This document shows, piece by piece, positions 7,801 through 30,488 of a stretch of 64,000 nucleotides of DNA; the stretch's first letter is position 1, and every line of letters starts with the position of its first letter. Source of the stretch: a candidate division TM6 bacterium GW2011_GWF2_37_49 (GTDB taxonomy: Bacteria; Babelota; Babeliae; Babelales; RVW-14). Position numbers and translations under genes: made by a program. A model generated the notes under the pieces. It was not told where the DNA came from. It saw only the letters and a program-made list of their open reading frames with translations, and did no database searches. The stretch covers positions 21,003-85,002 of the forward strand of contig CAMATL010000001.1 of the NCBI GenBank assembly GCA_945861145.1, in the 5' to 3' direction.

Positions 7801-8454
7801 TTCTTGCTTGGCGTTGTTTCAATTCACCTTGAACAGCTCATTTGGTATATCGGTACAACACTTGCCGTTGGCCTTGGTTTTGCACTTAAAGATATTCTAG
7901 CTGATTATGTAGCTGGTTTTTTTGTACTCATCGAGCGCCCTATTGAGATTGGCAACTACATAAAACTGGATCACAATCCGGAAATGCAAGGCGTTGTCCA
8001 TAAAATTGATGCCCGCACAACAACAATTATGACAAGGCTCAACCATTCCGTTATTGTGGCCAATAAAGACTTGGTCGGCAAAGTGCTTGCAAATTGGGGC
8101 AAGGGTCGCTTTGCTGTAGGATTTGAAATCAAAGTCATGGTTGATTATGATTCAAATATTGATGAAGTTAAAAAGACAATTCTGGAAATTTTACAAAGCA
8201 ATCCAGTGATTCTACGCGTACCAAACATTATTGTTCGTATAGATGATTTTGAGAACGATGGAATCTGCTTCCTTGCCCGCGCATTTATTAGCGCCCGCCG
8301 CGTCCAAGAACAATGGAGCATTGCTGCGGGGCTACGCGAAGAAATATTCAAAACATTTAAACTGAAAAATATTGGCTTTGGATTCCCTCAAAATATAGTA
8401 CTCTTGGGCAAGGCCTCTAAGGGCGGCCCAGTACAAATTAATTTTGAGCAATAA
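4849..8454 (+). CDS. MscK/KefA-like mechanosensitive channel (MscS family) with a long N-terminal coiled coil
   Basis: Signal peptide, about 550 aa of K/E/Q-rich coiled coil, then about 10 TM helices. The C-terminal MscS core reads DILADYVAGFFVLIERPIEIGNYIKL...GVVHKIDARTTTIMTRLNHSVIVANKDLV. RBS aagga lies upstream. Confidence 0.85.
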   Translation: MHINISSFFWTLAISFITLTPTIKAMPGFNLFAQPEKPAVGFFSAIEQKKKLLEKLQEDQKARHKKFTEELAALRNEILKIDAQIDSSKFSLDRIRSEQEAVLKNKKITTLDEIKQILSSTQEELKDAECIIDEHVKIIKEYLTINTTVEKHARAAYSWQELREAQLQSAELAARLEAERKKREDLNKQKASEVESISSLSKRLEVQGKEHSKNAANSRPTERSNSGLLLKLTNELFDLETFLLQKKIDLAKIKIEKIDLELAAKNDVVESLDLQLQNKKSSLSRIEKGLSLTSYDVETAKAEANLANHKAVRTKEAFNKKIDEKKAQKNKLLEDRANQQKQLKEFAAQDHESSDSVAFHVLKSEMHKTSSLIHVIEREIDFLSIKREFADLAVQNKETIAHDVDVRYQLLHGRADAGELASTFKNQKDIAQNHYKKMKDKHAEVMKSYGDRSRALEDIKIIQLKINARGYSVFSGYESAFSQVHANLEESRKAVTAWFSLSQEYIAISTDYLARCEKILNQYDLIIENLEDHRTLFGLWKRAPNALSLEDLNKALGGGEAFIKQLFIEAPKHLNFSKVLLSVKGITWQHTQNILALILLFFGFMFALRLLCSFMTQLLRKAQLKNTTDKGLLYATICTGALQFLKDHIVSSSVWLFFFLHIIFDFRGIFALLRPYALPYYISLFYLSSIPLFIYLSRNLLQRLTELNKKISFLSFPENFQERLEVLLTAYCYTLAVLTPLRQAAWHLLPHASLALTQLLLALQVSILTLIPVFIFNKEHVLYFLPDTSNISLWFKKQIAEYYYPLISFFVLLFMLSRSFVGYANLATFLSFSIPLTILVFYGMFWSHFYIRKYAIFMFIKENDEDITDKFEHARTYYGFLVIFSFLLLLLLSAFVIARIWEFNVTMRDFWRFLSETLVVPIGVDKKLGFIQLLTLILFVAGGFFASSIIHRFVLNRLFDILRTEPGTQNTITKIVHYLTISLSFLLGVVSIHLEQLIWYIGTTLAVGLGFALKDILADYVAGFFVLIERPIEIGNYIKLDHNPEMQGVVHKIDARTTTIMTRLNHSVIVANKDLVGKVLANWGKGRFAVGFEIKVMVDYDSNIDEVKKTILEILQSNPVILRVPNIIVRIDDFENDGICFLARAFISARRVQEQWSIAAGLREEIFKTFKLKNIGFGFPQNIVLLGKASKGGPVQINFEQ

Positions 8455-8577: not shown

Positions 8578-10641
8578 ATGGCAACAAGATTACTTTTCAG
8601 TCTCTTCGGCATGCTTTTCTTTATGGCTTCTTCTGCGCAAACCAACAATAGGTTAGTCATTCTCTCTGACGAAGATTGCTGTGAAAGCCCATTTAATAAA
8701 AAAAAGTCTACGGCATTAACAGCGACTCTCTCTTATTTTATTGAAGAAAATGAAGCCTTAATTCTTGTCTCAAGATCAGTGCTTCACCAATATCTTTTAG
8801 ATCAAGCCAAAAACTCTTCGGCTGATCCCCAAATCAATAACTCAATTCTCATATTTAAAGTGCAAGACACAGACACTGAGCATAACCTCATCTATGACAC
8901 CTCATACTACCTTGTTGCGCCTGTAAAATACCTTGCATCACAATTAAAAAATGCAGATGAACAGCATAAACAACGCTATGGAGAGAAAAAATCATTCAAT
9001 AGCGTATTTGGCTTACAAGCGGATACACTTTTAAATAAAATTAACCCGTCACAATCACTCACAAACCAGTGGTTAGCGATGGCTGACCTTCTTGCTTCCG
9101 ATACAAGTAGTGAAGGGTTTGCAAGTCAATTCTGGTCTGGTCTTTTTTTGACCAAAGAGCATGTCGGGACAGACACAGAATTATTAAAATCATGGTCTAT
9201 TATGTTTTTTTGTCATGGCAGCCCTACCGCAACAAGTGGCATCTCAATTCAAGACTTACGAACATTTTTTATGTTTCTAAGCGAAGAGCTTACAACGAAT
9301 GTTGTCACAATGACTTGTTGTTACCTTGCTGGAAGCATTAAAGATCAACTATGTGCCCACTCCATTACTTGCGAACCAATTACATACAATTTTGATCTTA
9401 TAATTGCTGGCCTCAGCGATGTACCTCAAATGATTAATAGCGGCGCTCAAGGCGTAGCTGAAGAATTTTTCGCACAACATGATACTAAGCTAGGCGCTAT
9501 AGATGCAACCAAGACTGTCGACCTCTTTACATACCTTATTACTACAGATGAATTTAAATTAAAACCAGATTTTGCATCATTTGGGCAAATTCGTTGTGCT
9601 GGCACCACAACCTTTACCGTGCCAAGCAAAGAAGTATTTCATATCACGCCAAGCAAAAATATCACTGCCGCACAGGCTTCAGAATGTCTTTCAAGTGTCA
9701 CATCAACCGTACGGCCAATCGATTCTTTAAAAAGAAAAATTTGCCTTACGCCACTACAAGCTCCCAGTAAAAAAATCATCTTACTTTATGTAGAATCTTT
9801 TCGTCGACCACTTGAATTTAAAGCAATCATAGGCCGTGGCATTGACACAATGACTTCTCCAATTATGCGCACTGATCATTACCTGCAAACATTCTTAGAA
9901 TGGGAACAGGAAATTGATACTAAAAAGTATCCTGCAATTGCAGCGGCCAAAAAAACAATTGGCTGTAAGCCGACAACACTTCAACATAAAGCATTTGTGG
10001 CACAAACACTAGAACGGTTGAACCCGTTCGGATTGCATTATCCACACATATTTTCAATGTTACCAAAAACATCGGTAAGTCATCACCCTGGTGTTCATTT
10101 TTTTGATGAAATCATAATCTCAAATCAAGTCAATGCAAGCCCAAGCCCTTTTATCGGTATTTTTCACTTCATACATGATGCTTTTTTCTATAACAGACAA
10201 CGATATTCTGAAAACAAATTTTTTATGAAAACGCTGCGCGGACACAATGATTTATCATTACTTTTTGAATGCGAAGACAAATTTGAAAATAAGGACAAAA
10301 TAAATCATATCGTAAAGATGCAATTACCTCATCAGGCTTTGCATAAAAACTTAGGCCAAACATTACATCATCTTGCTGGAAAAGATATTGAGCTAACAAA
10401 CGTCATAGTGCAGTCATGCTTCAGAGATGAAGATAAAAAATCAATATGTCATGTAATCTTTTCTATTAATAGCAAGCAAGACGAACCGGACGAATTACCT
10501 GATTATTCAACATGGGAATGTCTCTTCGAAATTCCAAAAGAAACAACAGCTACGGACTGTTTTCAATGGCGTTTTCTTTCTACTGACACTAATGCACATA
10601 CCAGTTCTTTTGAATTTGAAATAAATAATCTTGATCTTTAA
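8578..10641 (+). CDS. Secreted paralogue 1 of a 4-member family; clan-CD-like His/Cys motif pair
   Basis: Signal peptide MATRLLFSLFGMLFFMASSAQT. Family motifs are NRLVILSDED, ILVSRSVLHQY, YYLVAP, FFCHGS (His codon 9214..9216), VVTMTCCYLAG (Cys 9319..9321), and in the C-terminal half HFFDEI..SN, PFIGIFHFIHDAF and LRGHNDLSLLFECE. Confidence 0.8.
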   Translation: MATRLLFSLFGMLFFMASSAQTNNRLVILSDEDCCESPFNKKKSTALTATLSYFIEENEALILVSRSVLHQYLLDQAKNSSADPQINNSILIFKVQDTDTEHNLIYDTSYYLVAPVKYLASQLKNADEQHKQRYGEKKSFNSVFGLQADTLLNKINPSQSLTNQWLAMADLLASDTSSEGFASQFWSGLFLTKEHVGTDTELLKSWSIMFFCHGSPTATSGISIQDLRTFFMFLSEELTTNVVTMTCCYLAGSIKDQLCAHSITCEPITYNFDLIIAGLSDVPQMINSGAQGVAEEFFAQHDTKLGAIDATKTVDLFTYLITTDEFKLKPDFASFGQIRCAGTTTFTVPSKEVFHITPSKNITAAQASECLSSVTSTVRPIDSLKRKICLTPLQAPSKKIILLYVESFRRPLEFKAIIGRGIDTMTSPIMRTDHYLQTFLEWEQEIDTKKYPAIAAAKKTIGCKPTTLQHKAFVAQTLERLNPFGLHYPHIFSMLPKTSVSHHPGVHFFDEIIISNQVNASPSPFIGIFHFIHDAFFYNRQRYSENKFFMKTLRGHNDLSLLFECEDKFENKDKINHIVKMQLPHQALHKNLGQTLHHLAGKDIELTNVIVQSCFRDEDKKSICHVIFSINSKQDEPDELPDYSTWECLFEIPKETTATDCFQWRFLSTDTNAHTSSFEFEINNLDL

Positions 10642-10687
10642 TTAACAAAAGTCACAAAACTCACTCCAACAAACACATGGCAAAATT

Positions 10688-12673
10688 ATGATAACAAGAT
10701 TTTTTATAGGTCTTTTTAGCACGCTGCTTTTTATAACTATTTCAGTACAAGCAAGCAACCGACTAATCATCATTTCTGACGAAGATAATTGCGAAAGCCC
10801 ACAGCACAAAGCAACTCCTAAAGAAGCCCTCACAAATACCTTAGCTTATTTTATAAAAGAAGATATTGCCCCCATCCTTGTATCAAGATCAGTACTCCAC
10901 CAATTTATTGAAAAACAAATTGAGACGGCATCATTCCTTAAAAAAATACAGCTCTGCAGGGTGGTTGATTGCCAGAATAGCTTAAATACCTCGTACTATC
11001 TGCTGGTGCCAGAAAAAACATATGATAGAAGAATAACCCGCTACCTCCAAAATCATGAAATTTATGGAAAAGAAAAAGCTCTGGGTAGCATGTTTGGCTT
11101 ACAAGCAAGCGCCACAAAAAAAATTACCCTAATTGAACCAGACTGCAAAACGTCACTGCTGCAAGCCATAGCGGCCGATTCTCGAAAACCCAGTGTTGGC
11201 TTGGCTGGTGAATTTTGGCATAGTCTCTTTTTAAAAAAAAACGACTCTGATACTGAAGCAGAATTATTAAACCCATGGCTTATCATGTTATTTTGCCATG
11301 GATCGACAGGCTCACTTTCTGGCTTATCCATTGAAACCTTGCGTAGTTTTTTCAAATTCCTCAGCGAAGAGCAAACAACAAAAGTCGTTGCCATGACAAG
11401 CTGCCTGCTTGGAGGAATTACGAAAGAACTTCTTTGTACTGACGCCTTGGGAGATCCAATTGTTTATAATTTCGATTTTATCGTTGCAGGGCTAAGCGAC
11501 ATTCCACTCACTATTAATAGAACAGCCAATGGCTTGGCTACAAAATTTTTTATCGAGTACTATTCTAAGCAAACTCCAGATACCGAAGAAGCTATTAGGA
11601 TTTTTACCGAGCTTATTGTCCCTATGGATAAATCTTTTCCATCATTTGGGCAAATACAAAACAGCGGAAGCTCTACCGGTTTCAACGTTCCTAATAATGC
11701 CGGTCATTACACAAAGCTAACACCAAGTAAAATGATTTCTCGTCGCGTTCAAGATACTTCTCTTATCCCAATACCTCCACAAACCCCTTCGGCTTCGAAT
11801 ACGGCCATTCATAATCAACTAACGCCCTTGCAAGTAGTCAAAAGTAAAGCAATTTTAGCGTACACGGAGCGATGTCCAAGGCCACTCACAATTCACCCCG
11901 CACTAAACGATCAATCAGGCAGGACAAAATCTCCAATTGTTTGCACTGACAATTACCTACCAAAACTTACAAAGATCGCATCAGAAAACATTGATCGAAT
12001 ACGCTATCCAGCAACAGCATTAACTCTTGAAACAATAGGCATTAAATCAGAAGAACTTTCTGAGAAGGACCACCTTCAAGCCGTACAACAAAAAAACTGT
12101 CCTAAAGGTTTTTTTTACCCCAATACAATTTCAATGAACCATTCTATAGATACAAAAAAACCAACTCTTCATATCTTTGATCAAATAACCACTTCAAATA
12201 TAATTAATGGACTTGCTAGTCCTTGCTTTGGCATCCTGCGATACCTGCGGGACAGTTTTCTTTGTAGTGGAGGTCGCCGCTCAGCAAGTACCATCTGTAT
12301 AAAAAAATTATACGGTTATAATGACCTTTCTATTATCTTTGAATGCGAACAAGATCAACTCGCTAGCTGCGAACTAAAAGGCATACTTCGCGATAATAAA
12401 CTTGCCACTGGAACTCTTGAGCTCGAACATGTCATCATAACTAAAAGCTTTAGCGAGACAACAAGAACATCAACCTACCATGTGCAATTCTCCCTTAATG
12501 CCAACCAGGGAAAAAAAGGCAAATCTCGATGTACCGCATGGAATTGCTGGTTTACAATTTCAGAAGGTACGCCAACAAATATACCTTGCTTGTGGCGATT
12601 TCAAAAAATGAATTTTAAGGATCATTTGGCAACATTTGAAAGACAAATTTCCAATACACCAACAACTCATTAA
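10688..12673 (+). CDS. Secreted paralogue 2 of the 4-member family
   Basis: Signal peptide. Motifs are NRLIIISDED, ILVSRSVLHQF, YYLLVP, LFCHGS (His 11297..11299), VVAMTSCLLGG (Cys 11402..11404), HIFDQI..SN, CFGILRYLRDSF and LYGYNDLSIIFECE. It is closest to paralogue 1. Confidence 0.8.
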   Translation: MITRFFIGLFSTLLFITISVQASNRLIIISDEDNCESPQHKATPKEALTNTLAYFIKEDIAPILVSRSVLHQFIEKQIETASFLKKIQLCRVVDCQNSLNTSYYLLVPEKTYDRRITRYLQNHEIYGKEKALGSMFGLQASATKKITLIEPDCKTSLLQAIAADSRKPSVGLAGEFWHSLFLKKNDSDTEAELLNPWLIMLFCHGSTGSLSGLSIETLRSFFKFLSEEQTTKVVAMTSCLLGGITKELLCTDALGDPIVYNFDFIVAGLSDIPLTINRTANGLATKFFIEYYSKQTPDTEEAIRIFTELIVPMDKSFPSFGQIQNSGSSTGFNVPNNAGHYTKLTPSKMISRRVQDTSLIPIPPQTPSASNTAIHNQLTPLQVVKSKAILAYTERCPRPLTIHPALNDQSGRTKSPIVCTDNYLPKLTKIASENIDRIRYPATALTLETIGIKSEELSEKDHLQAVQQKNCPKGFFYPNTISMNHSIDTKKPTLHIFDQITTSNIINGLASPCFGILRYLRDSFLCSGGRRSASTICIKKLYGYNDLSIIFECEQDQLASCELKGILRDNKLATGTLELEHVIITKSFSETTRTSTYHVQFSLNANQGKKGKSRCTAWNCWFTISEGTPTNIPCLWRFQKMNFKDHLATFERQISNTPTTH

Positions 12674-12758
12674 TTTAATATCAACGTGAGTTCGGAGTTT
12701 CAAAATTCTTCAAAAGAAAGAACCCATCAATATTTCTATAAAAAATTAGAACACACCC

Positions 12759-12904
12759 ACGTCATCCCCAGCTTGATCTTGGATCAAGGCTAATAATCCA
12801 TCAAAATTTATCGAAAACGCTAATCTATGAAGCACTTTGGCAATTTCAATCATATGATTTTTTATATTGAGCCTGGATCCTGGCTCGGAGGCCAGGACGA
12901 CGTA
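12759..12904. repeat. MITE-like element with imperfect terminal inverted repeats (GTCATCCC-type ends)
   Basis: The left arm cacgtcatccccagcttgatcttggatcaaggc (12759..12790) and the right arm gcctggatcctggctcggaggccaggacgacgt (12871..12903) are imperfect reverse complements. The element lies in the spacer between paralogues 2 and 3. Confidence 0.5.
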
Positions 12905-13065
12905 GGCAGATATATATTCTTTATAAAACAACGAACAAATAAATATTCCCATATAAATTACAACCCCCAACTCTGATCAACCTCAACACCCTGATCGAAA
13001 GCTTTGTAGGAATTAGTGTTTCGATTAGAATTATTTTTCTTTTTTATCATAAAGGACCTTTTTTG

Positions 13066-14991
13066 ATGAAGCTTAACTTCCAAAGCCTTGTTTTTTTTAT
13101 CTTTACCCAACTCTGTGTCGCGCCTTTACTTGGCATCCACAATCGATTGGTTCTCATCATCGATGAAGATAAAGATGAAACAATTAACGATAAAAGCGTT
13201 AAAGCTCTCACGAGCGCACTTGATTTATTAATTCGCGAACAAAGCTGTACCGTGCTGGTTTCAGGAAATACTTTACATAATTATGCTGTACGCAGAAATC
13301 ATACAGAAAATCTCAAACACCCTGAAAACGGTGAATTTCGCCAATCACCACTGTACGCAAATCTCTGGCGGATTTTTAAAATACACGGCGCTTGTTATTA
13401 TCTGCTTATCCCTCAAAAATATCTGGCCTTAAAAAACACAGATCTCCCTGCTCACACCCAAGAACACAACCAAAAACTTGGTATAAATTTTAGCGATATG
13501 AGCGAAATTTCATACCTTCTGCCAAAGCCAAAGGGATCATATCTTCCTTTGCAACAATTTATTGAAAAAGATCTTGAATCTGCTCAATTATGCAAACTCA
13601 ACTTGCATAATATTTTCATCTTCTCTTCTCCGGCAGATGAAAGCCGCGTAGCTGGCAATAACGCCTGGTTATTGTATATCCTTGGACATGGTTCACTACG
13701 AGGCCATATTGCAGGAACACAGAGTAAAAACTTATTAGAGGTTTTAGATTTTTTTGACACACAGCTTTTGACAAAGCTTGTGTATATCTGCTCATGCTAC
13801 GCAGGTGGACGAAACAAACAGCTGCTCCTTAGGGCAAATAATGTCCCCTACCATTACCCCTTGGTAGTTGGCGCCGCTACAGATGCTCCAGCATCGCTTT
13901 CTTTAGGCTCTATGTCATTTGAGTTGTTTTTTAAACAAGCAGAAAGTACTAATAGTAGGATTAATCTAAACCAACATATTTCTGCAGCCGCACAGCACCT
14001 TTCCCCTTTTGAATCAAATAACAATTCTCGTCATGACATGTCAGCACTACCTCAACTACTCCCCGCAGGCAGACAGTTTTTTAAAGCCCTAGATCTTCAA
14101 AATGCTACGTTTTCTTTGAAGAACACCGAAGTAGAAGAGTTTGGGTCAAGAGACAAAGCAGCCATCTTACTGTATAAAAAAGAATACACCACTCCCCTAC
14201 GCATAACCCCAGCAAAAAACATCGTAAAAACATATCCAACAGAAAACTCATCGCTCGCTGAAAAATTTCTTACACCATCATTATTTGAGCACACAGGATG
14301 GTTACGACTCAAATTGGATAATTTACGCACGTTAGAAAAAATTCGTGAATTTATTACTTCGAAGGCAAAAGCAAAAATAGCTCCGGATAAAATCCGGCAA
14401 CAGGTTATAAATCACTTCGCACCACACAATGCTTTATTTCCTACTTTTATCTCAATGCTACATCCAGAACCAGCACTCACACGCTTTGCATCCTCTACGT
14501 CAGCATGCCATCATTTTTCAGAGATTGTTGTAGACAATACGCTTGGCACTACCGAATCACCTTTTTTTGGTTTACTACGCTTTATCTATGACGCATTTCT
14601 CGATATTAATCAGCGTGATTCAGAAAACGTTTTTCTTATTGATACACTAACTGGCTATAATGATTTTGCGCTCTTCTTTGAGCTGTATGCAAACGCAACA
14701 GGGCGGCCAGATTGCGAACGAACACGTTTTTTTAAGCAATGGGCAAATGAAACTATTACGCTATCCAATGTTCTAATTAGAACAAAAGGCGGGTTTGAAA
14801 AAGTATGTAGACTTGATGATGAACCCCGTTACTTTGAAATTATTACCATAGGATTTGACTTTGAAGGTCAATCATGGGGATTTTCATTCAGGGGAAAACC
14901 TAACACAACAACACCCTGGCCGTTCAAAAAAATAAACTCACGCACTCACGCCTCTTTTTATAACACGTGGTTACAAAGCATTGATCGTTAA
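13066..14991 (+). CDS. Secreted paralogue 3 of the 4-member family
   Basis: The ATG at 13066 is preceded by aaagga (the longest ORF starts at TTG 13063). Signal peptide. Motifs are NRLVLIIDED, VLVSGNTLHNY, YYLLIP, YILGHGS (His 13687..13689), LVYICSCYAGG (Cys 13795..13797), HHFSEI..DN, FFGLLRFIYDAF and LTGYNDFALFFEL. Confidence 0.8.
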   Translation: MKLNFQSLVFFIFTQLCVAPLLGIHNRLVLIIDEDKDETINDKSVKALTSALDLLIREQSCTVLVSGNTLHNYAVRRNHTENLKHPENGEFRQSPLYANLWRIFKIHGACYYLLIPQKYLALKNTDLPAHTQEHNQKLGINFSDMSEISYLLPKPKGSYLPLQQFIEKDLESAQLCKLNLHNIFIFSSPADESRVAGNNAWLLYILGHGSLRGHIAGTQSKNLLEVLDFFDTQLLTKLVYICSCYAGGRNKQLLLRANNVPYHYPLVVGAATDAPASLSLGSMSFELFFKQAESTNSRINLNQHISAAAQHLSPFESNNNSRHDMSALPQLLPAGRQFFKALDLQNATFSLKNTEVEEFGSRDKAAILLYKKEYTTPLRITPAKNIVKTYPTENSSLAEKFLTPSLFEHTGWLRLKLDNLRTLEKIREFITSKAKAKIAPDKIRQQVINHFAPHNALFPTFISMLHPEPALTRFASSTSACHHFSEIVVDNTLGTTESPFFGLLRFIYDAFLDINQRDSENVFLIDTLTGYNDFALFFELYANATGRPDCERTRFFKQWANETITLSNVLIRTKGGFEKVCRLDDEPRYFEIITIGFDFEGQSWGFSFRGKPNTTTPWPFKKINSRTHASFYNTWLQSIDR

Positions 14992-15015
14992 AATTTTTTA
15001 GGAAAAAGGAATTTA

Positions 15016-17085
15016 ATGATCTCGCTATGCATTCTACATCGCACGATATTCATACTTATATTCTTATGCCCAACTTCATCACAAACACAAGCCAACCGGC
15101 TTATCATGCTCATCGACGAAAATAACGATGAGGCTTTGTATCAAAATGAAGTTAAGGCCTTAGTAAGCATTTTTAATAAAACAATTTATGATCAAGTAGC
15201 TCCTATATTGGTCAGTCGAAATATTTTATATAACTATATTGCTCGACGTAGCTACACAACACATCCCAGCCATCCTGAAAATAAAGATCTTGTAAACTCC
15301 CCGCTCTATAAAGGGATATGGCGCCTTTTCAAAATTAACAATGCAAAATTCTATCTACTACTTCCAGAAAAACTCTTACCAACAACTCCCTACCCAACCA
15401 ATTTAGCTGGAAGGCAAATACTTGGGTTTCATTTTACAAATACCACAGAGCTCACCTCGCAGCTTCCTTTTGCTGGTGATTTTTATCGAGATATACGCAA
15501 TTTTTTAAAAAGAGACACGCAAGGATTAACCCTAGAACAGATTGATTTAAGCATCCTATTTAATACAAAGCGACCGAGCGCTTCCGTAGGCTATCAGATT
15601 AATTACACGCCTTGGAATATTTATTTATTTGGCCACGGCTCATCAACTGGCTCCATTGCTGGCACTCAAGCAAAAAATGTTTGTAAGCTTCTCAATTTCT
15701 TTGACAGCAATATTTCTACCAATTTAGTATACATAACCTCTTGCTTTCTTGGTGGCGCAAATAAATATCTTCTTATGCCTCCTGAGCAAAAAGCTTACAA
15801 CTTTATACTCGCTCTTGGAGCAATAACCGACGCCATAACAGTCATACACAGCGCAAAAATATCATTCAAGCAATTTTTTACACAAGCAGAAAAACCTTTA
15901 AAAAGTCGTGATAAATCTTATTTAATCGACACCTTAAAGCCACTTACTCAATATATAACCTCAAAATGGTCTCATCACGGCATTACCGAACAACCTCAAA
16001 TTTATTCCCCACAAAGAAAATGCTTCGAGGTCCTAGCATTTGACAAATCAATAATAGCACTGCATCACACGAATAGGCCTATACCATCACCAGCAGTCAT
16101 GCATAAATCGCTAGCTCAAAAAGTTGTCAACCCAAGCGATACCTCTACGCCAGCAACAATTTTCTTGTATGATAAAATTGCAATTTTGCTCTACGATAGT
16201 TTTTATGAAGAAACTCTTCATATCACACCTAATCAAGCAGGTACTGGCGTTACTACTTCCAAAGCTAATCCATTAACTAATATTCCAACGGTAGCAGGCC
16301 TTCTCATGCCATCTCTTTTAGGGCTAGATAGAGCAAAAGAAAAAACGCCAGCCTGGAGCCGAGCGGCACGAGACATGCAAGCAGTTCTTCAAAAAAGCAC
16401 CGACAACTCAAGACGATTATTTAGTCGCATGAAAAAATGTTTTTCACCATCTGATGGCATATTTCCAGCCTTTATTTCAATGCTACATACCCCACATTCA
16501 AAAGCAGGCCCGATAACGCCTCAGACAATATCACATCATTTCACACAAATAGATGTCAGCAATAAACTCAATGGGGTAGTAAACCCCTTGTTTGGTGTCA
16601 TGCATTTTTTTCGTGATGCCTTTCTCGATGCTAGTTGCCGCTGCTCAAAAAATATCTTTCTGATTGATTCACTTACAGGCTTTAATGATTTTTCTATTTA
16701 TTTTGAATTAGAAGCGCTGGCGGAAGAAAAGCCTTTGGCTCCATTTGCTCGCGAACTTACAGAATACATACACGAACATATAACTTTTTCCCAAATAACA
16801 ATTTCAACACAAGGATTGCTAGGCAATAGTCAACGTGAAATGTGTGTAGAAATTAGTTTTATTTTTAATGAAAAAGCATGGTCCATGCAATTTATTGGTA
16901 AACCAGAAGATTTTTCTCAAATCAATCATTGGCAATTTGATCCGATCGATGACACAACGTATCAAGAACTCTATGATTCCAAAAAAACCAACATTCTTAA
17001 TAGTTCGTCAAAAAACCCACCAAAAACATATGCTGATGCCGTTAGACAAGGGATAGCGACGCCAACCCATATCCGCTTTAAATAA
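15016..17085 (+). CDS. Secreted paralogue 4 of the 4-member family
   Basis: RBS aaagga and a signal peptide. Motifs are NRLIMLIDEN, ILVSRNILYNY, FYLLLP, YLFGHGS (His 15634..15636), LVYITSCFLGG (Cys 15742..15744), HHFTQI..SN, LFGVMHFFRDAF and LTGFNDFSIYFELE. It is closest to paralogue 3. Confidence 0.8.
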   Translation: MISLCILHRTIFILIFLCPTSSQTQANRLIMLIDENNDEALYQNEVKALVSIFNKTIYDQVAPILVSRNILYNYIARRSYTTHPSHPENKDLVNSPLYKGIWRLFKINNAKFYLLLPEKLLPTTPYPTNLAGRQILGFHFTNTTELTSQLPFAGDFYRDIRNFLKRDTQGLTLEQIDLSILFNTKRPSASVGYQINYTPWNIYLFGHGSSTGSIAGTQAKNVCKLLNFFDSNISTNLVYITSCFLGGANKYLLMPPEQKAYNFILALGAITDAITVIHSAKISFKQFFTQAEKPLKSRDKSYLIDTLKPLTQYITSKWSHHGITEQPQIYSPQRKCFEVLAFDKSIIALHHTNRPIPSPAVMHKSLAQKVVNPSDTSTPATIFLYDKIAILLYDSFYEETLHITPNQAGTGVTTSKANPLTNIPTVAGLLMPSLLGLDRAKEKTPAWSRAARDMQAVLQKSTDNSRRLFSRMKKCFSPSDGIFPAFISMLHTPHSKAGPITPQTISHHFTQIDVSNKLNGVVNPLFGVMHFFRDAFLDASCRCSKNIFLIDSLTGFNDFSIYFELEALAEEKPLAPFARELTEYIHEHITFSQITISTQGLLGNSQREMCVEISFIFNEKAWSMQFIGKPEDFSQINHWQFDPIDDTTYQELYDSKKTNILNSSSKNPPKTYADAVRQGIATPTHIRFK

Positions 17086-23758: not shown

Positions 23759-24073
23759 GTGAAAAGTGACCATATGCCTACTTCCTTAGTCGCCTCTGCC
23801 TTAGGGGGCATTACCATCGGCCTCTTGTATGCATACCTTCTAAAAAGACAAACTAAGTCTTTATTTGAGGGCCTTTCTGGGCAGCCTGGTGGTGGCAATA
23901 AGATGACAGCGATACTCAAACATCTTTTTTTCCTTATGAGCCGCTTTATAATCATCATAGGCCTTATTCTTGCACTTAAATTCACCGGCTATGTAGACTT
24001 ACAAGTGTGCTGTATTTTTGTAGTTTGCGGCTTCCTGATGAGCCTCTTTATTTACACCAAAAGGATGTTATGA
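23759..24073 (+). CDS. Small membrane protein in the AtpI/AtpZ position upstream of atpB
   Basis: Three to four hydrophobic helices. Its stop overlaps the atpB ATG (ATGA at 24070..24073). An alternative start is the ATG at 23774. Confidence 0.5.
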   Translation: MKSDHMPTSLVASALGGITIGLLYAYLLKRQTKSLFEGLSGQPGGGNKMTAILKHLFFLMSRFIIIIGLILALKFTGYVDLQVCCIFVVCGFLMSLFIYTKRML

Positions 24074-24900
24074 ATTTTGATATCTTTAATTATCATCTGA
24101 TACATCCCTTTGAAGCTTTCAACTTTACACACCCATTTTGGACCTTGCACCTCGATACCCTTATCTATACCTGGGCAGCGATGGCGCTTTTTTTTTCTCT
24201 AGTTTTTGTTGCACGCCTAGCTCTAAAGCGAGCGCCCAATAAACTCACTATTCTTTTTGAAACCATTGTGCGCTTCTTTATGAACACAACGCGGGACGCA
24301 TTTGGTTATTTTGAATTTCGCTATTTTGCATTTACAGCGTCACTCTTTTTATTTACTTTTTTTTGCTGTTTTATCGGTGTCTTCCCCTTTTTAGACGAAG
24401 CAACCAAAGATCTCAATACAACCCTAGCCCTTGGCCTTTCAAGCTTTTGTTTTGTTCAATACCAAAAAATTAGAGTTAACGGCCTGCTGGCATACCTCAA
24501 AGAATACCTACATCCCTTCTTTCTTTTGGCTCCTATCAATATTATTGGTGAGCTGGCCAAAATAGCATCAATGTCGTTTCGCCTCTTTGGCAATATCCTT
24601 GGTGGCGGCGTCGTGTTTATGATGCTGGTTGATTTTTTACAAGGCTATGCCTACTATTTTTTCACGCTCGGCATCATCTATTTTGTGGTTCATACAGGGC
24701 TTGATTTTTTCAACGTATTGCCCACTCGAGGCTTTTTTTCTGTTCTTTTAAAAGCAGTTTCTGTAATTATATTTGCTCTTGCCTGGGCACAATTATTTTT
24801 CGGCGTCTTTGAAGGACTGATTCAATCATTTGTCATCATGATGCTCACGCTAACGTATCTTTCTATGGGTATCACACACCAAGATCAACAAGCTCACTAA
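24070..24900 (+). CDS. atpB: F-type ATP synthase Fo subunit a
   Basis: Stator-arginine motif SFRLFGNILGGGVVF and 5-6 TM helices. The ATG at 24070 has RBS aagga and is coupled to the upstream stop. The longest ORF (24007) overlaps the upstream gene. Confidence 0.85.
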   Translation: MNFDIFNYHLIHPFEAFNFTHPFWTLHLDTLIYTWAAMALFFSLVFVARLALKRAPNKLTILFETIVRFFMNTTRDAFGYFEFRYFAFTASLFLFTFFCCFIGVFPFLDEATKDLNTTLALGLSSFCFVQYQKIRVNGLLAYLKEYLHPFFLLAPINIIGELAKIASMSFRLFGNILGGGVVFMMLVDFLQGYAYYFFTLGIIYFVVHTGLDFFNVLPTRGFFSVLLKAVSVIIFALAWAQLFFGVFEGLIQSFVIMMLTLTYLSMGITHQDQQAH

Positions 24901-24911
24901 GGAACACTGTC

Positions 24912-25862
24912 ATGATAAATGCTCAAATTATTCACTACAGTGCTGCGTTTATTACTCTCACGCTAGCGGCACTTGGCGGCGGCGTAGGACAGGGCATTGC
25001 AAGCCTTGCTACAATTGATGCAATTCAACGTCAACCTTGCAGTTATCAACAAAATTTTCGAACCCTCGTTATCGGCCTAGCTCTTATTGAAAGCGGGATA
25101 ATTATAGCGCTGGTTTCAACATTAATGATTATTTTTAGCTCACAGCCGCTCACGATTGGCATAGCCTGCGGGGAGCTTGGCATTGCTGCGGCAATTGGTC
25201 TAGCCGGAGGAGCGGTAAGTATTGCCTCAAGTTTTGTGGTTAAAGCAGCAACTGAAGGCATCGGTAGGCAACCATTTTTTGCTGCAAAAATAACTACCGT
25301 CATGTTGCTAGCACAGTCAATAATGGAAGCCCCACTGATTATTGCATTCATTGTTTCATTGCTCATACGCAATCGCATCAATGCAAACCCTGAGCTTTTA
25401 TACGGACTGCAAGGACTAGCAGCTGGGCTCACTATCGGACTTGGAAGCGTGGGACCATCGATTGGACAGGCAATTTTTACTCAAGCAGCCTGCAAAAGCA
25501 TTAGTGTAAACAAAAACGCTTATAACAAAATTTTTCCATTTATGTTGCTACTTGAAGCGATTATTGAAACGCCTTTTATGTTCTGCCTGCTCATTGCATC
25601 TATGATTTTATTTCGCCCTCTTGATGGCGCAATCTTAAGTGACGCCTTGATTCTTGGAGCTGCAGCTTTTGCAATCAGTATGGGATCTCTCGGAACAGCG
25701 ACCGGCATTGGTTTTACGGCATCAAAAAGCGTCATCAGCCTCGCCCAAAACCCAGACCAATATTCCCTACTCCTAAGAACTACACTGCTCGTGGCGGCCT
25801 TTATTGAATCAGCAATTATCTATGCAATGATTGTTGCGATCATGTTAATCATGGAAGTGTAA
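24912..25862 (+). CDS. atpE: F-type c subunit, four hairpins fused into one 316-aa polypeptide
   Basis: Four consecutive units of about 79 aa each. Each unit has a Gly-rich helix, a polar loop (RQP, RQP, degenerate, QNP) and a helix-2 Glu: E60 (25089..25091), E139, E219, E299. RBS aaggaa. Confidence 0.8.
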   Translation: MINAQIIHYSAAFITLTLAALGGGVGQGIASLATIDAIQRQPCSYQQNFRTLVIGLALIESGIIIALVSTLMIIFSSQPLTIGIACGELGIAAAIGLAGGAVSIASSFVVKAATEGIGRQPFFAAKITTVMLLAQSIMEAPLIIAFIVSLLIRNRINANPELLYGLQGLAAGLTIGLGSVGPSIGQAIFTQAACKSISVNKNAYNKIFPFMLLLEAIIETPFMFCLLIASMILFRPLDGAILSDALILGAAAFAISMGSLGTATGIGFTASKSVISLAQNPDQYSLLLRTTLLVAAFIESAIIYAMIVAIMLIMEV

Positions 25863-25915
25863 GTAAAAAGCAAAATTGAATTCGATTATCAAGAGCCTTC
25901 GCTATGGAGAGTATA

Positions 25916-27067
25916 ATGAAGCAGCTCAATGTATTGTACATACTAACCAAGCTTGAGCTTGGTGGTGCTCAAAAAGTGTGCTTAACACTTCATCAGGGCT
26001 TAGTACGTAATCAGCACAACGCAATGCTCGTGTCTGGTGCCGAGGGCGTACTTGTTGATGAAGCACAAAAAACACCTGGTTGTATTTTTCTAGATTCATT
26101 TAAGCGCGAAATTTCATTTTCTGGATTCATGCATGATTTAAAAACATTTCGCACACTCATTGCATTAATGCGCAACTATAAAAAAATATATCCCGACTTA
26201 ATCGTACACACTCATAGCACAAAAGCTGGTATTATTGGTCGTTGGGCTGCTTTTTTTGCTGGCATTAAAAATCGCGTCCACACGGTACATGGCTTTGGAT
26301 TTCATGATCATCAACGCTTTTTACCATGGCTTACAATCGTTGGAATGGAATGGTTTACTACACTCATCACCACACATCTTATATGCGTCTCAGATAAAGA
26401 TCTCAAACGCGGCAGCAAGCTGCTTCCATTCTTTGCAAAAAAAAGCTCAATTATTCGAGCAGCCGTCACCGATCAGCATTTTATTACCCCTGCCAAACGA
26501 ACAGATACTCATAAAAAACACCTGATCATTGGTGTTATTTCCTGTTTTAAGGCACAAAAAAATTTATTTGATTTGCTAGAAGCTTTTCGCATTGCACGAA
26601 CAACGGCAGCCAAACAAGGTATCGATGCACGCTTAGAAATCGTTGGCGATGGTGAGCAGCGAGGGGCTATTGAGACCTGGATCGCCACGCATAAATATAA
26701 CAATATTATCACTTTGCACGGCTGGCAGGGCGATGTACAAAAATTTTTGCGCCGGTGGGATATTTTTGCTTTAAGTTCACTATGGGAAGGCCTACCATGC
26801 TCGGTCATTGAAGCGCGGCTGGCAGGCCTTGCTGTGGTTGCATATGACGTTGGCGGTATTAGCGAAGTAATTACACATGGCATCAATGGTTTTTTAATTA
26901 CGCCTGGTGATTATACCGCTCTAGCAAGCCACTTAGAAGAACTCGTGTGTAATCAAACATTACGCACACGCTTACAGCAGCACCAAGAAAATCTTACACA
27001 TTTCTCGGCTAGATCAATGATTACCCAACACGAGACGTTATATAAAAAAATTGAAATAACGCGTTAG
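25916..27067 (+). CDS. Glycosyltransferase family 4 (GT-B)
   Basis: N-terminus ILTKLELGGAQKV and C-terminal EGLPCSVIEARLAGLAVVAYDVGGISEVI (E-x7-E region). The ATG at 25916 follows ggaga (the longest ORF starts at 25904). Confidence 0.8.
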   Translation: MKQLNVLYILTKLELGGAQKVCLTLHQGLVRNQHNAMLVSGAEGVLVDEAQKTPGCIFLDSFKREISFSGFMHDLKTFRTLIALMRNYKKIYPDLIVHTHSTKAGIIGRWAAFFAGIKNRVHTVHGFGFHDHQRFLPWLTIVGMEWFTTLITTHLICVSDKDLKRGSKLLPFFAKKSSIIRAAVTDQHFITPAKRTDTHKKHLIIGVISCFKAQKNLFDLLEAFRIARTTAAKQGIDARLEIVGDGEQRGAIETWIATHKYNNIITLHGWQGDVQKFLRRWDIFALSSLWEGLPCSVIEARLAGLAVVAYDVGGISEVITHGINGFLITPGDYTALASHLEELVCNQTLRTRLQQHQENLTHFSARSMITQHETLYKKIEITR

Positions 27068-27182
27068 ATCAACACGTTCACCGTTTTTAGAACTTGTTTT
27101 TGACTTTTAAAATCTCCTTCTGGTAGGATTACGTCAACATTACCAGAGCATCACGTTTAGCTCGAGAAAAAAAGGAGATAGT

Positions 27183-27461
27183 ATGAAGCAATGTATCAAG
27201 ATCATAGTTACTGGACAGGTACAGTCATCGGCATACAAAGAGGCTATTCAAAAACAAGCCCAAAAGCTTCATATTGAGGGCACATTGCAAAATCATGAAG
27301 AGGTTGATCTTCTCATTTTTGCGTGTGGTCAATCAGACGGCCTGGACGAATTAATTGATGAAATCTACAAAGGCACAAGCGATATTAAAATTCGCGATGT
27401 CATTATAGAGCCTTTCATCAACGAAAAAAATTATCGCGGGGTTTTTCGTATAATTGGTTAA
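27183..27461 (+). CDS. Acylphosphatase-like protein
   Basis: 92 aa. IIVTGQVQSSAYKEAIQKQAQKLHIEGTLQN parallels the V-x-G-x-V-Q-G-V-x-F-R ... G-x-V-x-N pattern, although the phosphate-binding loop is degenerate. RBS aaggaga. Confidence 0.45.
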   Translation: MKQCIKIIVTGQVQSSAYKEAIQKQAQKLHIEGTLQNHEEVDLLIFACGQSDGLDELIDEIYKGTSDIKIRDVIIEPFINEKNYRGVFRIIG

Positions 27462-27593
27462 ATTGCTTTATTCGCCGCATGCTTCTTACGTAGCTATGAT
27501 CAGCCTGTACTAAAAATCAAATTTCCTTTCAAACCCCCCGGAAAATAGTAGGCTGTAGAAAATAATTGTTAACCTTTTCGGGAATCAAAGCCT

Positions 27594-30488
27594 ATGAGAA
27601 TCATGCGGTCCACTTTCTTACTTATTTGTTACTGGCTCTACACACAACCGCTTATCGCAAATCTTGGTGGAACCTTTAAAGCAACAAACAAAGCTTTGAA
27701 TGAGCTCGATGAAACATCATTTTATCTAGAAAAAGCCAGCTTCAAAACCGATGTCCCATTCACTCAAGAAGAATTTGAGTATTTGGTAAACATTGAACCA
27801 AATACCTTTATTAATAAACTTGATGTACAGCGTGCATATCGTAACCTCATGCGCAAAAAGAGGTTTACCGGTATTAATATTAATATGCTCGATAGCACCA
27901 ATGGAAAACATCTCGTCTTTGAGCTTGAAGGCCAGTGGCTCTTAAGAAATATCAAAGTAACCGGATTTTTATTTGGTAAATATGAATACGGCGCACAATA
28001 CCTGCAGCAACCTGGCGACGTTTTTGATGTGAATCTTCACGAAGAATCACTGCAGGTATTACAAAGTTTTTTACATGATCAAGGATATTTTGACGGCATT
28101 GTCGAAGATGAATTGGATTATAATCCACTAGATAAAACAATCATTATCAAGCTGCATATTACTCGAGGCAAGCGCTACCATATCAATAAAATTGATATCA
28201 CTCACAGAGATACAACCAATACAGCCGACCTACTAAACAGTATTATTCAAGATACGCAGCAGGAATTTAAAGAATTGTTCCTCAAGCCACTGTACGCAAC
28301 AGAATATTTAACTAAAATTGCCGATACCCTCAAAGCAAAACTACGTCATAAAGGTTTTGAGCAACCACGCATTACACGCAAAAAATCGTTTAGCTTTGAA
28401 CAAAAACTAGTAAATATTGATTTCAATATTGAGGCAGGCAGTCGTAAAATTGTACATTTTTCTGGCAATACTTCTCTGCCAAGCGACACAATTAAAAAAA
28501 CAGTGCTTGGCGATGAACAACCTGGTTGGCTTTTTTCGCCAGACATCATATGCGAACAAATCGTACATGAATACGAACGCCGCGGATTTTCTGATACCAC
28601 CGTGCGTTGTGAAAAAAAAGATGATACATATACCTTCATAATTAATGAAGGTAAGCCAATCGCGCTAGAAGCTATTGAAATTAAAAATGCCGACACACTG
28701 ACAGCAGAAGACACCTCTTATTTTTGGCAAGAACTAGTCGGAAAAGATTTTTTTGATCAAAGCTTACTCGACCAAAAATTACAAGATTTTAAGCGCTTAT
28801 ACGAAAAAAACGGCTACTGGGATTTTTCTATTATTGACCAACAATCACGCATCAATGAATTAACAGGCAAACAAATAATCACCATCTTTATTAGTAAAGG
28901 CTCTCAGCGACTATGGGCAGGGCTTGAAATCAAAGACCACCCAGACCTTGCTTTGCTGGCAGGCTTCAAAAAATTTAACCTGCGCAACAAACAGCAATTA
29001 GTCCCTTTCAATCGCGCATGGCTTAGCGAACAAAAAACAATACTACTTAATCACTTTCAACAAGAAGGCCACTGGTACGCTGATGCGCAATCAGAGCTCA
29101 GTGAGCTTCCCATCGATGAAACCACAAACAACGGTAAGTCAATAAAGCGTTTATTTGTTAGCTGGGTTGTTACACCAGGACAACAAATAACTTTTGGTAA
29201 AATTATTATCTGCGGCAACAGTAGACTGCCTTTCAGCCGCATCAAAAATGAAATCAAATTCAGCGAAGGCGATGTCTGGAGTAAGGAAAAAATCGATTTA
29301 ACACGTAAAAAACTCAAGAGGCTCGACGTTTTCAAACGCGTACAAGTACAGCCGCATCAAGGCAGCGCTAAGCAGCAAAAACCGGTAGTAATAACCCTTG
29401 CCGACGAAGATCCATTTGAGATCCGCTTCCGTGCTGGCGTGTACGTACCAAGCAATAGCGCTATTTTTCATGAAGAAGTTACAGGTAAGGTGGGCACCTC
29501 GGCATCAATACGCAACCCCACCAATCGCGCAGACAAGGCAAAATTCGATGCAGATTTGAGCAACTTCGAACGAAAAATAAATCTCGAGTACCAGCAACCA
29601 TCTCTCTTTAATCTGCCACTCTTGGGCAAAATTAAACTGTATACCAATAATTTTACCCACCCTCTTCACATCTCCAATAGCCACTCAGCCTATCAAGCAC
29701 ATCAAACAGGTGTCCTTATTGCGCTCAACGAAGAGTTCAAAGAACATTATTTCGTAGGTTTCAATGTCGGCAATGAGTGGATCAAGACAAGTGATGTCAT
29801 TGGTAACATAAAATTTGATCCGACACTGCTCAATAAATTCATGCGCTATATTTTCATCGAGCCAACAATAACCATTGATCATCTTGATGATAAAATTAAT
29901 ACAACCCGCGGCACCTTCAGCTTTGCTTCATGCAAGCTTATGCTACCAACACAGATTTCTGATTATTCTGTACGCCTCACCTTAGAGCAATCAGCTTTTT
30001 ATTCTATCCATGAAGATGTTGTTCTTGCTGGTCGGCTGCGCTTAGGGCATATTTTTAGACGAAATTTTGAAACCATTATGCCAATCGAGCGCTTCTTTCT
30101 TGGTGGCCCAAATTCAGTACGTGGCTACGAAAAAGATTCAGTCCCGCCAATTGGCAAATCAATCATCACACGAACAGTCAACGGCGCAGCAACACCAGTC
30201 ACCGAATACACCATTCAAGGTGGCAGCTCAATGCTTAACTCAAACCTTGAAGTTCGCTTTCCAATTTTGCAAAAACGTATCCAGGGCGTGGTCTTTCAAG
30301 ACATTGGCGCACTCAGTCAAACAGACATGGCAGGACTCACCCAAAACTGGTATCCGGCTACAGGACTAGGGCTACGCTTTAAGACGCCAGTCGGCCCGCT
30401 ACGCTTTGACATCGGCTGGAAGTGGAAAAAACGATTTGTCGATGATTCCCGTATCGCCTGGTACCTCACCCTCGGTGAAGCGTTTTAA
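27594..30488 (+). CDS. Omp85-family protein with POTRA repeats (TamA/BamA-like paralogue)
   Basis: 964 aa with a signal peptide and repeated POTRA-like segments (IKVTGFLFGKYEY, IVHFSGNTSLPSDTIKK, IIICGNSRLPFSRIKNEI). The C-terminal barrel contains RFFLGGPNSVRGY and ends in WYLTLGEAF. Confidence 0.8.
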   Translation: MRIMRSTFLLICYWLYTQPLIANLGGTFKATNKALNELDETSFYLEKASFKTDVPFTQEEFEYLVNIEPNTFINKLDVQRAYRNLMRKKRFTGININMLDSTNGKHLVFELEGQWLLRNIKVTGFLFGKYEYGAQYLQQPGDVFDVNLHEESLQVLQSFLHDQGYFDGIVEDELDYNPLDKTIIIKLHITRGKRYHINKIDITHRDTTNTADLLNSIIQDTQQEFKELFLKPLYATEYLTKIADTLKAKLRHKGFEQPRITRKKSFSFEQKLVNIDFNIEAGSRKIVHFSGNTSLPSDTIKKTVLGDEQPGWLFSPDIICEQIVHEYERRGFSDTTVRCEKKDDTYTFIINEGKPIALEAIEIKNADTLTAEDTSYFWQELVGKDFFDQSLLDQKLQDFKRLYEKNGYWDFSIIDQQSRINELTGKQIITIFISKGSQRLWAGLEIKDHPDLALLAGFKKFNLRNKQQLVPFNRAWLSEQKTILLNHFQQEGHWYADAQSELSELPIDETTNNGKSIKRLFVSWVVTPGQQITFGKIIICGNSRLPFSRIKNEIKFSEGDVWSKEKIDLTRKKLKRLDVFKRVQVQPHQGSAKQQKPVVITLADEDPFEIRFRAGVYVPSNSAIFHEEVTGKVGTSASIRNPTNRADKAKFDADLSNFERKINLEYQQPSLFNLPLLGKIKLYTNNFTHPLHISNSHSAYQAHQTGVLIALNEEFKEHYFVGFNVGNEWIKTSDVIGNIKFDPTLLNKFMRYIFIEPTITIDHLDDKINTTRGTFSFASCKLMLPTQISDYSVRLTLEQSAFYSIHEDVVLAGRLRLGHIFRRNFETIMPIERFFLGGPNSVRGYEKDSVPPIGKSIITRTVNGAATPVTEYTIQGGSSMLNSNLEVRFPILQKRIQGVVFQDIGALSQTDMAGLTQNWYPATGLGLRFKTPVGPLRFDIGWKWKKRFVDDSRIAWYLTLGEAF

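Follow-up and report, generated by a model that had tools for sequence, protein, structure and literature searches.

The 64,000 bp stretch of DNA analysed here (the window; contig CAMATL010000001.1, positions 21,003 to 85,002, of the candidate division TM6 bacterium GW2011_GWF2_37_49) carries, directly downstream of the gene for the F-type ATP synthase subunit a (atpB), an open reading frame (ORF) coding for a 316 amino acid (aa) protein made of four F-type c subunit hairpins in a single polypeptide chain. We name this protein c4. The bacterial F-type c subunit is in its textbook form a single hairpin, and the size of the rotor ring is set only by packing. The 316 aa, four hairpins and eight helices of c4 depart from the usual size of such single-hairpin proteins (~70–90 aa). 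Orthologues of c4 are found in a large set of Dependentiae, and the protein appears to result from an ancient in-frame fusion of four c hairpins that became fixed in the phylum and would yield a four-hairpin rotor subunit. We consider it probable that c4 serves as rotor subunit in a complete F1Fo ATPase with genes dispersed in the genome, and that this enzyme uses ATP to pump ions in a parasite that imports its ATP.

Domain composition and fold of c4

The assignment of c4 relies first on its match to the Pfam family PF00137 (ATP-synt_C), obtained with E = 4.1e-36 and a score of 123.5 bits for a cut-off of 24. The match is split in four separate stretches, a domain count that agrees with the four c-type hairpins of the original prediction. 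The protein scores above the curated NCBIfam cut-offs for the F0F1 subunit C (NF005363, 87.5 for a cut-off of 71; TIGR01260, 71 for 43.95) and far under those of the V-type subunit K (NF011483, 40.8 for 188; NF004913, 33.4 for 211; NF005124, 21.5 for 127), a result that upholds its reading as a covalently joined F-type c subunit. The cut-offs of the models for the N-ATPase (alternate F1Fo) were not reached (TIGR03322, 89.5 for 130.85; TIGR03306, 83.3 for 302.1).

The four helix-2 carboxylates proposed previously (E60, E139, E219 and E299) are all present and have identical spacing, the loop of the hairpin being positioned exactly 20 residues earlier in each case. The loops of hairpins 1 to 4 read RQP, RQP, VNK and QNP. 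The RQP loop that docks subunits gamma and epsilon is thus found in hairpins 1 and 2 and is replaced in hairpins 3 and 4, a distribution conserved in the family. An AlphaFold2 model computed with a 62-sequence alignment (predicted local distance difference test (pLDDT) 92.9; predicted template modelling score (pTM) 0.88) has eight long helices paired as four hairpins that are connected by short linkers.

The hairpins of the window protein have pairwise identities of 21–28% and no 12-mer is repeated in the c4 gene. Cross-scores between position-specific hidden Markov models (HMMs) were highest for hairpins 3 and 4 (44–52 bits), the other pairs giving 25–38 bits. An order of duplication from c to c2 to c4, recognizable by a (H1,H3)(H2,H4) pattern, was considered; the cross-scores are ambiguous in this respect and no conclusion was drawn.

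Distribution and age of the fusion

A protein identical to c4 was called on eight independently assembled contigs from different ENA samples. Word-index searches retrieved 173 and 222 homologues, nearly all of them 309–329 aa long (the 120 matches listed of the 173 are all 310–329 aa except one fragment). Where the source gives a name, these homologues belong to Candidatus Dependentiae or Babeliales. An exhaustive HMMER search, which covered 1.84 billion representatives, identified 126 c4-family clusters at E ≤ 1e-30, nearly all of 307–329 aa and reaching down to 26–30% identity. The ordered H1-H2-H3-H4 architecture was recognized by the position-specific HMMs in 119 of the best 150 representatives, the other 31 being mostly truncated fragments, together with a few divergent four-hairpin proteins and five longer multi-hairpin proteins. 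The closed genome of Babela massiliensis, which dates from the Sanger/454 era, encodes a 320 aa orthologue (PMC4378268, supplementary annotation).

The survey of relatives proposed previously therefore led to a large family of Dependentiae/Babeliales proteins in which the order of the hairpins is fixed. Gene content and synteny of the window are also as expected for this taxon. Judged from these sequences, the four-hairpin fusion is fixed throughout the phylum Dependentiae, and it is regarded as ancient because its hairpins have retained so little identity, have left no repeats in the DNA and carry conserved position-specific signatures. That four tandem atpE genes were merged by a sequencing or assembly error, or that the ORF is a fused pseudogene, is favoured only by the prior expectation of a single-hairpin c subunit in bacteria, no supporting evidence having been found, and has a negligible probability in view of the identical ORF on eight independent contigs, the hundreds of orthologues of 307–329 aa that keep the same hairpin order down to 26–30% identity, the orthologue in the closed Babela genome and the confident structure model; collapse of a repeat is impossible with hairpins as different as these.

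The c4 genes are currently labelled “hypothetical protein” or “ATP synthase F0 subunit C”. In the searchable literature (subscription-only papers lay outside this scope) neither an F-type c subunit with four hairpins nor the Dependentiae fusion was found to be described.

Hairpin differentiation and carboxylate patterns

Conservation was assessed in 122 sequences close to the window protein (near set) and in 127 full-length representatives of 50% clusters (broad set), the latter being less biased. In hairpin 1, all sequences of the near set have R40 and Q41, and E60 is found in 122/122, followed by Ser or Thr; in the broad set the carboxylate is nearly always Glu (Asp in 4/127) and Q41 is kept in 121/127. 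Hairpin 2 combines a near-invariant RQP in the near set with Glu at the E139 position in 107/122 sequences. Its loop is the most conserved of the four in the broad set (Arg in 122/127, Pro in 127/127) and, phylum-wide, its carboxylate position is mostly occupied by Gln (patterns EQED and EQEE, given in the order of the hairpins). Hairpin 3 has in the near set a [LIV]-N-K loop, Glu in 107/122 sequences and an invariant T220 after it; across the family its loop is [LIV]-N-[KR], with N200 conserved. E299 of hairpin 4 is found in 118/122 near sequences, followed by Ser, and an invariant Tyr (Y304) stands five residues further on. In the broad set this carboxylate is either Asp or Glu. A second membrane Glu, E215 (codon 25554–25556), is present in hairpin 3 four residues before E219 (LLLEAIIE); its position is occupied by Gln in 77 and by Glu in 24 of the 127 broad sequences.

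The pattern EQED, the one of Babela, accounts for 60 of the 127 broad sequences, EEEE, the one of the window protein, for 21 and EQEE for 20. Losses in hairpins 2 and 3 co-occur in the near set, where EGQE, ESQE and EGQQ are found together in 14/122 sequences. The statement that c4 keeps all four carboxylates consequently holds for the window protein and fails as a family rule: EEEE is, from the sequences compared, a minority state, hairpin 2 being usually silenced across the family. The proposed loss of RQP from loops 3 and 4 is conserved and position-specific in the whole family. Covalent order may have let the hairpins diverge, with hairpins 1 and 2 supplying the RQP docking surface for gamma and epsilon and hairpins 3 and 4 not doing so.

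Ring composition and comparison with known rotor subunits

In an F-type hairpin both ends are on the periplasmic side, and short periplasmic linkers can therefore join the outer helix of one hairpin to the inner helix of the next one. Each copy of c4 would form an arc of eight helices and so supply one sector of the ring. With c4 as sole c subunit, the closed ring would count 8, 12 or 16 hairpins. It would face a canonical subunit a that retains the stator Arg and the half-channel residues. The restriction of ring sizes to multiples of four, stated without reserve in the original prediction, holds only under that same condition. Engineered c multimers of Escherichia coli and Bacillus PS3 (c2, c3, c4 … c10) are joined head-to-tail through short periplasmic linkers as c4 is, but those are laboratory-made proteins with identical hairpins whereas c4 is natural, ancient and diverged. 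The single-chain c10 is active, showing that covalent fusion of F-type c subunits is compatible with function (PMC8809890).

The best solved match to c4 is subunit c1 of the F/V-hybrid ring of Acetobacterium woodii, a V-type-like c in an F-type Na+ ATP synthase (4bem_J; profile E = 3.2e-23, single-sequence E = 8.5e-14, hairpins 3–4 only), which is also ranked first by Foldseek for the c4 model (target-normalized template modelling score (TMt) 0.70; 32% identity). Special kinship of hairpins 3–4 with c1 was rejected since the two-hairpin score (54.8 bits) is close to the sum of the two single-hairpin scores (~30 each). Both proteins are of F-type lineage and have covalently joined hairpins, and the non-RQP loop of c1 hairpin 1 (GKNP) resembles loop 3 of c4 (VNKN). 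They differ in that c1 has two hairpins with one carboxylate while c4 has four of each. The A. woodii protein is a minor ring component, one copy being assembled with nine single-hairpin c2/3 subunits (PMC9171764).

This relative provides the most serious alternative for the ring, a hybrid in which one or a few copies of c4 would assemble with ordinary single-hairpin c subunits encoded at a distance. Ring size would then not be bound to fours, and c4 would serve to tune the number of ion sites. The closest solved protein works in this manner (PMC9171764) and the atp genes are scattered in Dependentiae (see below), such that another c gene could be far off. The COG table of Babela also has a count of 2 for COG0636. 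This count was rejected as sign of a second c gene: ordinary F-ATPase organisms score 0 in the same table, which makes its COG0636 counts unreliable and uninterpretable. The genes also argue in the opposite direction. The gene for c1 has single-hairpin c genes as neighbours, whereas the atpB locus of Dependentiae has c4 as its only c gene, fixed across the phylum; no second c-type ORF was found in the window or at any related locus, and c4, placed directly after atpB, is the only c-type ORF within ±10 kb in ~10 independent Dependentiae lineages. The c genes of A. woodii, in addition, presumably stand in tandem, which we count against a distant partner. A hybrid ring is on balance unlikely and we prefer a rotor built with c4.

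The other multi-hairpin rotor proteins are of V/A-type. Archaeal c subunits are listed with “1, 2, 3, or even 13 hairpins”, four not being among them, and in multi-hairpin V/A-type proteolipids the loss of carboxylates was connected with pump function and a reduced ion/ATP ratio (PMC9171764). The V/A-type proteins (Enterococcus hirae NtpK, 2bl2; eukaryotic Vo c/c'/c''; Methanocaldococcus; Methanopyrus; 2, 3 or 13 hairpins) share with the c4 family the trend to lose carboxylates (EQED, EGQE), but V-type structures match c4 at only 17–20% identity over half of the protein and the c4 sequence is F-type. Carboxylate loss in the c4 family is thus, on sequence comparison, the familiar trend of fused proteolipids, seen now within the F-type lineage. 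No PDB chain covered more than about half of the c4 model in Foldseek (query-normalized score (TMq) ≤ 0.43); therefore, no c subunit with eight transmembrane (TM) helices has been solved.

The five longer multi-hairpin c proteins retrieved by the exhaustive HMMER search are natural metagenomic proteins unrelated to the c4 family: one of 968 aa with 13 hairpins, each of which seems to have Glu (P0259), one of 524 aa with seven hairpins (P0358), one of 434 aa with five hairpins, all with Glu (P0365), and two of ~410 aa with five hairpins that have Glu in the first and Gln in the others (P0346, P0362). Judged from these sequences, multiplication of rotor hairpins seems commoner in uncultivated organisms than one would gather from the literature.

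Ion specificity

Residues of the four hairpins were compared with the Na+ motif of Ilyobacter tartaricus, which we take to be Q32, E65, S66, T67 and Y70; the conserved Q-13-R-20-E spacings served as a check of the alignment register. The corresponding residues are Q/E/S/G/I in hairpin 1, S/E/A/P/I in hairpin 2, Q/E/T/P/F in hairpin 3 and I/E/S/A/Y in hairpin 4. The full Q/E/S/T/Y set is found in 0/4 hairpins, with Tyr in hairpin 4 alone. As ion sites form between neighbouring hairpins, the ring would present four different sites, those within one c4 being chemically distinct.

The pattern that had been read as compatible with Na+ binding is accordingly a weak one. An enzyme that pumps Na+ rather than H+ would be in line with the helix-1 Gln of hairpins 1 and 3, with the residue after Glu, which is Ser in hairpins 1 and 4 and Thr in hairpin 3, with the invariant Tyr of hairpin 4 at the Y70 position and with the several Na+ antiporters and symporters of Babela (PMC4378268). 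Na+ coupling of the ring, though, requires that Na+ be bound by all active sites passing subunit a, and this is difficult to reconcile with hairpins of which none has the complete set: hairpin 2 has S…E-A-P, hairpin 3 has Pro at T67 and Phe at Y70 and in hairpin 4 the Gln is replaced by Ile. Na+ coupling is for these reasons improbable, and the motif reading makes H+ the more likely coupling ion.

Location of the remaining ATPase genes

All ORFs of at least 120 aa that are not nested inside a longer one were searched against Pfam over the complete window. No match to the alpha, beta, gamma, delta, epsilon or b subunits was found among them, and the six-frame translation of the window has no alpha/beta P-loop motif, in agreement with the absence of other atp genes noted previously. 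Related loci, at ~50% identity, have the same gene order: a small ORF with three TM segments, atpB, c4 and a GT4-family glycosyltransferase gene, with the phosphoenolpyruvate (PEP) synthase gene upstream, though not in every lineage, and, in most, acylphosphatase and BamA genes after the glycosyltransferase. No F1 gene was found within ±10 kb of the related c4 loci.

Genomes of relatives reveal where these genes are. B. massiliensis has at the same locus an 84 aa membrane ORF, AtpB (261 aa) and a 320 aa “AtpE” annotated without comment, while its COG table has AtpA, AtpD, AtpG, AtpC, AtpH, AtpF and AtpB in one copy each; atpG (gene 468) stands alone among unrelated genes ~190 kb away from the c4 locus (PMC4378268). 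The Babela gamma subunit used as query retrieved 665 Dependentiae-type gamma subunits. Its gene is also a lone one in three further genomes (L015, L016, L018) and has a conserved neighbourhood, with genes for a YacP-like NYN protein and TsaE upstream followed by SecE-NusG-L11. Four megabase contigs, paired by their identical size in bp, gave both c4 and gamma matches. In one of them (ena:ERZ25039491:contig_12845; 1,417,897 bp) it was verified that atpB-c4, at ~582 kb, and atpG, at ~509 kb, are ~72 kb apart. The rpoB and ribosomal protein genes beside atpG in this 1.42-Mb record (L018, 1–8700) were called as many short fragments, which suggests frameshift errors of a long-read assembly, and absences of genes from the record are thus to be taken with caution.

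The gene contents compared lead us to regard the atp operon as fragmented phylum-wide in Dependentiae, a scattering that accounts for the a/c-only context, and the a/c pair as the Fo head belonging to an enzyme that is complete. The canonical atpI-atpB-atpE operon head has the same gene order and translational coupling as the c4 locus, but the latter ends after c4, with atpF, H, A, G, D and C located elsewhere and atpG monocistronic. The original prediction had also considered an orphan module in which subunit a and c4, devoid of an F1, would conduct ions passively or under gating, or be coupled to another machine. Apart from the 64 kb without other atp genes, it might be supported by the conserved envelope-related surroundings of the locus (GT4, acylphosphatase and BamA). 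This is nevertheless very unlikely. The same arrangement occurs in genomes that encode the F1 gamma subunit (Babela; the 1.42-Mb record) and, in the case of Babela, the alpha, beta, delta, epsilon and b subunits as well; hairpins 1 and 2 have RQP loops that hardly vary, a constraint expected only if F1 docks on them; a free Fo would dissipate the membrane potential; and lone atpG genes would be senseless without a c-ring.

The block formed by c4, GT4, acylphosphatase and a BamA-like Omp85 gene (25904–30488 in the window; related loci L006–L017) is syntenic between lineages at ~50% identity. Linkage of the Fo head to envelope genes may be synteny frozen in reduced genomes.

Direction of operation

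Dependentiae are a phylum without electron transport chain and tricarboxylic acid cycle and possess ATP/ADP translocases; the authors who described these genomes inferred reverse operation of an ATP synthase, and mention only “an ATP synthase” (PMC4776705, PMC6561590). In these organisms, which lack respiration and import host ATP, the pump direction is the most likely one: ATP hydrolysis would pump ions, probably H+, and so maintain the membrane potential. The enzyme of the window organism, keeping all four sites, would move four ions per c4. A carboxylate is lost in hairpin 2 in most lineages, or in hairpins 2 and 3 in some, and each loss would lower the ion/ATP ratio; this lineage-specific silencing of hairpins would raise the attainable potential. 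A more elaborate version has a rotor made solely of c4 units (8, 12 or 16 hairpins) whose four distinct sites pass subunit a in a hard-wired order, with lineages tuning the ion/ATP ratio by silencing hairpins (EEEE, 4 sites per c4; EQED, 3; EGQE, 2), an independent replay, in an F-type enzyme and inside a single phylum of ATP importers, of the route proposed for V-ATPases, in which proteolipids were duplicated, fused, deprived of carboxylates and turned to pumping. We hold this version to be plausible, with chances slightly short of even.

Several points weigh against a complete c4-based pump. Composition and size of the ring are deduced, and a second single-hairpin c gene was searched only within ±10 kb of the loci and in the 64-kb window. 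Direction and ion species are argued from genome content and motif reading. The F1 genes were seen in relatives of the window organism. The AtpI assignment described below is weak, the window copy having no Pfam match.

Gene organization of the atpB-c4 locus

Three co-directional ORFs form the locus, coding for the small membrane protein, subunit a and c4 (Table 1).

Table 1. Features of the atpB-c4 locus (positions in the window).
Feature	Position	Strand	Observations
Small membrane protein with three TM segments, in the atpI/uncI position	23774..24073	+	99 aa from ATG at 23774
atpB, F-type subunit a	24070..24900	+	276 aa; PF00119; ATG at 24070
c4, fused four-hairpin F-type c	24912..25862	+	316 aa; four ATP-synt_C stretches
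Hairpin 1 (aa 1–79)	24912..25148	+	GGGVGQG; loop RQP (aa 40–42); E60 (codon 25089–25091) in LIESG
Hairpin 2 (aa 80–158)	25149..25385	+	Loop RQP (aa 119–121); E139 (codon 25326–25328) in IMEAP
Hairpin 3 (aa 159–238)	25386..25625	+	GPSIGQ; loop VNK (aa 199–201); E219 (codon 25566–25568) in IIETP
Hairpin 4 (aa 239–316)	25626..25859	+	Loop QNP (aa 279–281); E299 (codon 25806–25808) in FIESAIIY
GT4-family glycosyltransferase, not an ATPase component	25904..27067	+	PF00534 and PF13439

The mechanical ORF call of the first gene starts at a GTG (23759; 104 aa). The ATG at 23774 is more likely the initiation codon, a gene caller having chosen the 99 aa version on an identical contig. The stop codon of this ORF overlaps the atpB start (ATGA, 24070–24073), as read directly in the sequence. 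An ORF of 84–99 aa with the same TM pattern precedes atpB in 8/8 related loci and in Babela, and these orthologues have in common a G-x-x-x-G…Y-x-x-L-F motif. PF03899 (ATP-synt_I) is matched weakly by 6/9 orthologues, the best with E = 0.0016, and AtpR by 1/9, also weakly (E = 0.2); the window copy itself had no Pfam match at E ≤ 1, PF03899 included. The small protein is probably an AtpI/UncI-like ring-assembly factor, in view of its position, of the ATGA coupling, of the conserved three-TM design and of the PF03899 matches of its orthologues. Of the AtpI-like ORF coupled by ATGA that was proposed previously, the overlap is thus confirmed while the label stands less firmly.

Subunit a, also called with 276 aa on an identical contig, is a normal one as predicted: it matches PF00119 with E = 2.5e-35 over profile positions 2–217 of 217 and has the stator Arg in SFRLFGNILGG. 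This motif and that of TM5 (FEGLIQSF…TYLS) are kept across the related loci, where the Arg, Asn, Glu, Gln and Tyr are conserved. These motif residues we take to be at the positions of E. coli R210, N214, H245, Q252 and Y263. The c4 ATG is found 11 nt after the atpB stop codon and has its own ribosome-binding site (AGGA) 8 nt upstream; at all related loci c4 occupies this canonical atpE place directly downstream of atpB.

The next gene is a glycosyltransferase gene, as had been noted. It directly follows c4 at every related locus and in one of them (L013) the two genes overlap. No convincing terminator-like site was found between c4 and GT4 (25863–25903), and promoter-like sites are no commoner at the locus than in shuffled sequence. 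The two genes are probably co-transcribed.

An upstream PEP synthase gene in one Babeliales metagenome-assembled genome (L004, 729–4364) codes for a protein ~400 aa longer, whose insertion just ahead of the conserved CHAAIVSRE motif looks, from its sequence, like an intein or homing endonuclease (LAGLIDADG-like).

Other genes of the window

The window also encodes a KsgA-type rRNA adenine dimethylase, PEP synthase, triosephosphate isomerase, SecG, MlaE with its ABC ATPase, a sigma-54-type response regulator, a MoxR ATPase, an ankyrin-repeat protein, ribonucleotide reductase, Glu/Gln-tRNA synthetase and tmRNA, in addition to several ORFs without family match. Two Omp85/POTRA (BamA/TamA-like) proteins of 729 and 964 aa are encoded at 89–2278 and 27594–30488. 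A 1201 aa protein (4849–8454), whose MscS domains are found only at its C-terminus (aa 1015–1177), is an unusually large MscS homologue. Pfam gave no match for the four consecutive large ORFs that follow and are of similar size (8578–17085; 687, 661, 642 and 689 aa); they may be a paralogous lineage-specific family, perhaps of effector or surface proteins. The segment 42902–52256 is a cluster of the type II secretion/type IV pilus kind that codes for two secretins of 1071 and 905 aa and for one GspC-like and one PilM/GspL-like protein; two gspD copies were reported for TM6 genomes (PMC4776705), matching the two secretins.

Implications

Multi-hairpin rotor proteolipids were already known as a principle and the c4 sequences are public under generic names; what seems to be new, from the sequence comparisons, is an ancient and phylum-wide four-hairpin subunit of F-type. 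Its recognition corrects the annotation of a rotor subunit hidden behind generic gene labels, and the dispersion of the atp genes can lead genome surveys to misjudge ATPase completeness. Babela and Chromulinavorax can be grown in hosts, which makes the c4 ring accessible to cryo-electron microscopy and mass spectrometry. Were c4 the sole c subunit, ring stoichiometry would be hard-wired to multiples of four. The protein would also offer a counterpart from nature to the experiments with fused c that probe cooperativity between neighbouring c subunits. The family would also provide a graded series with 4, 3 or 2 carboxylates per four hairpins, which could serve to test the long-standing idea that fusion of hairpins and loss of carboxylates turn a synthase into a high-force pump.

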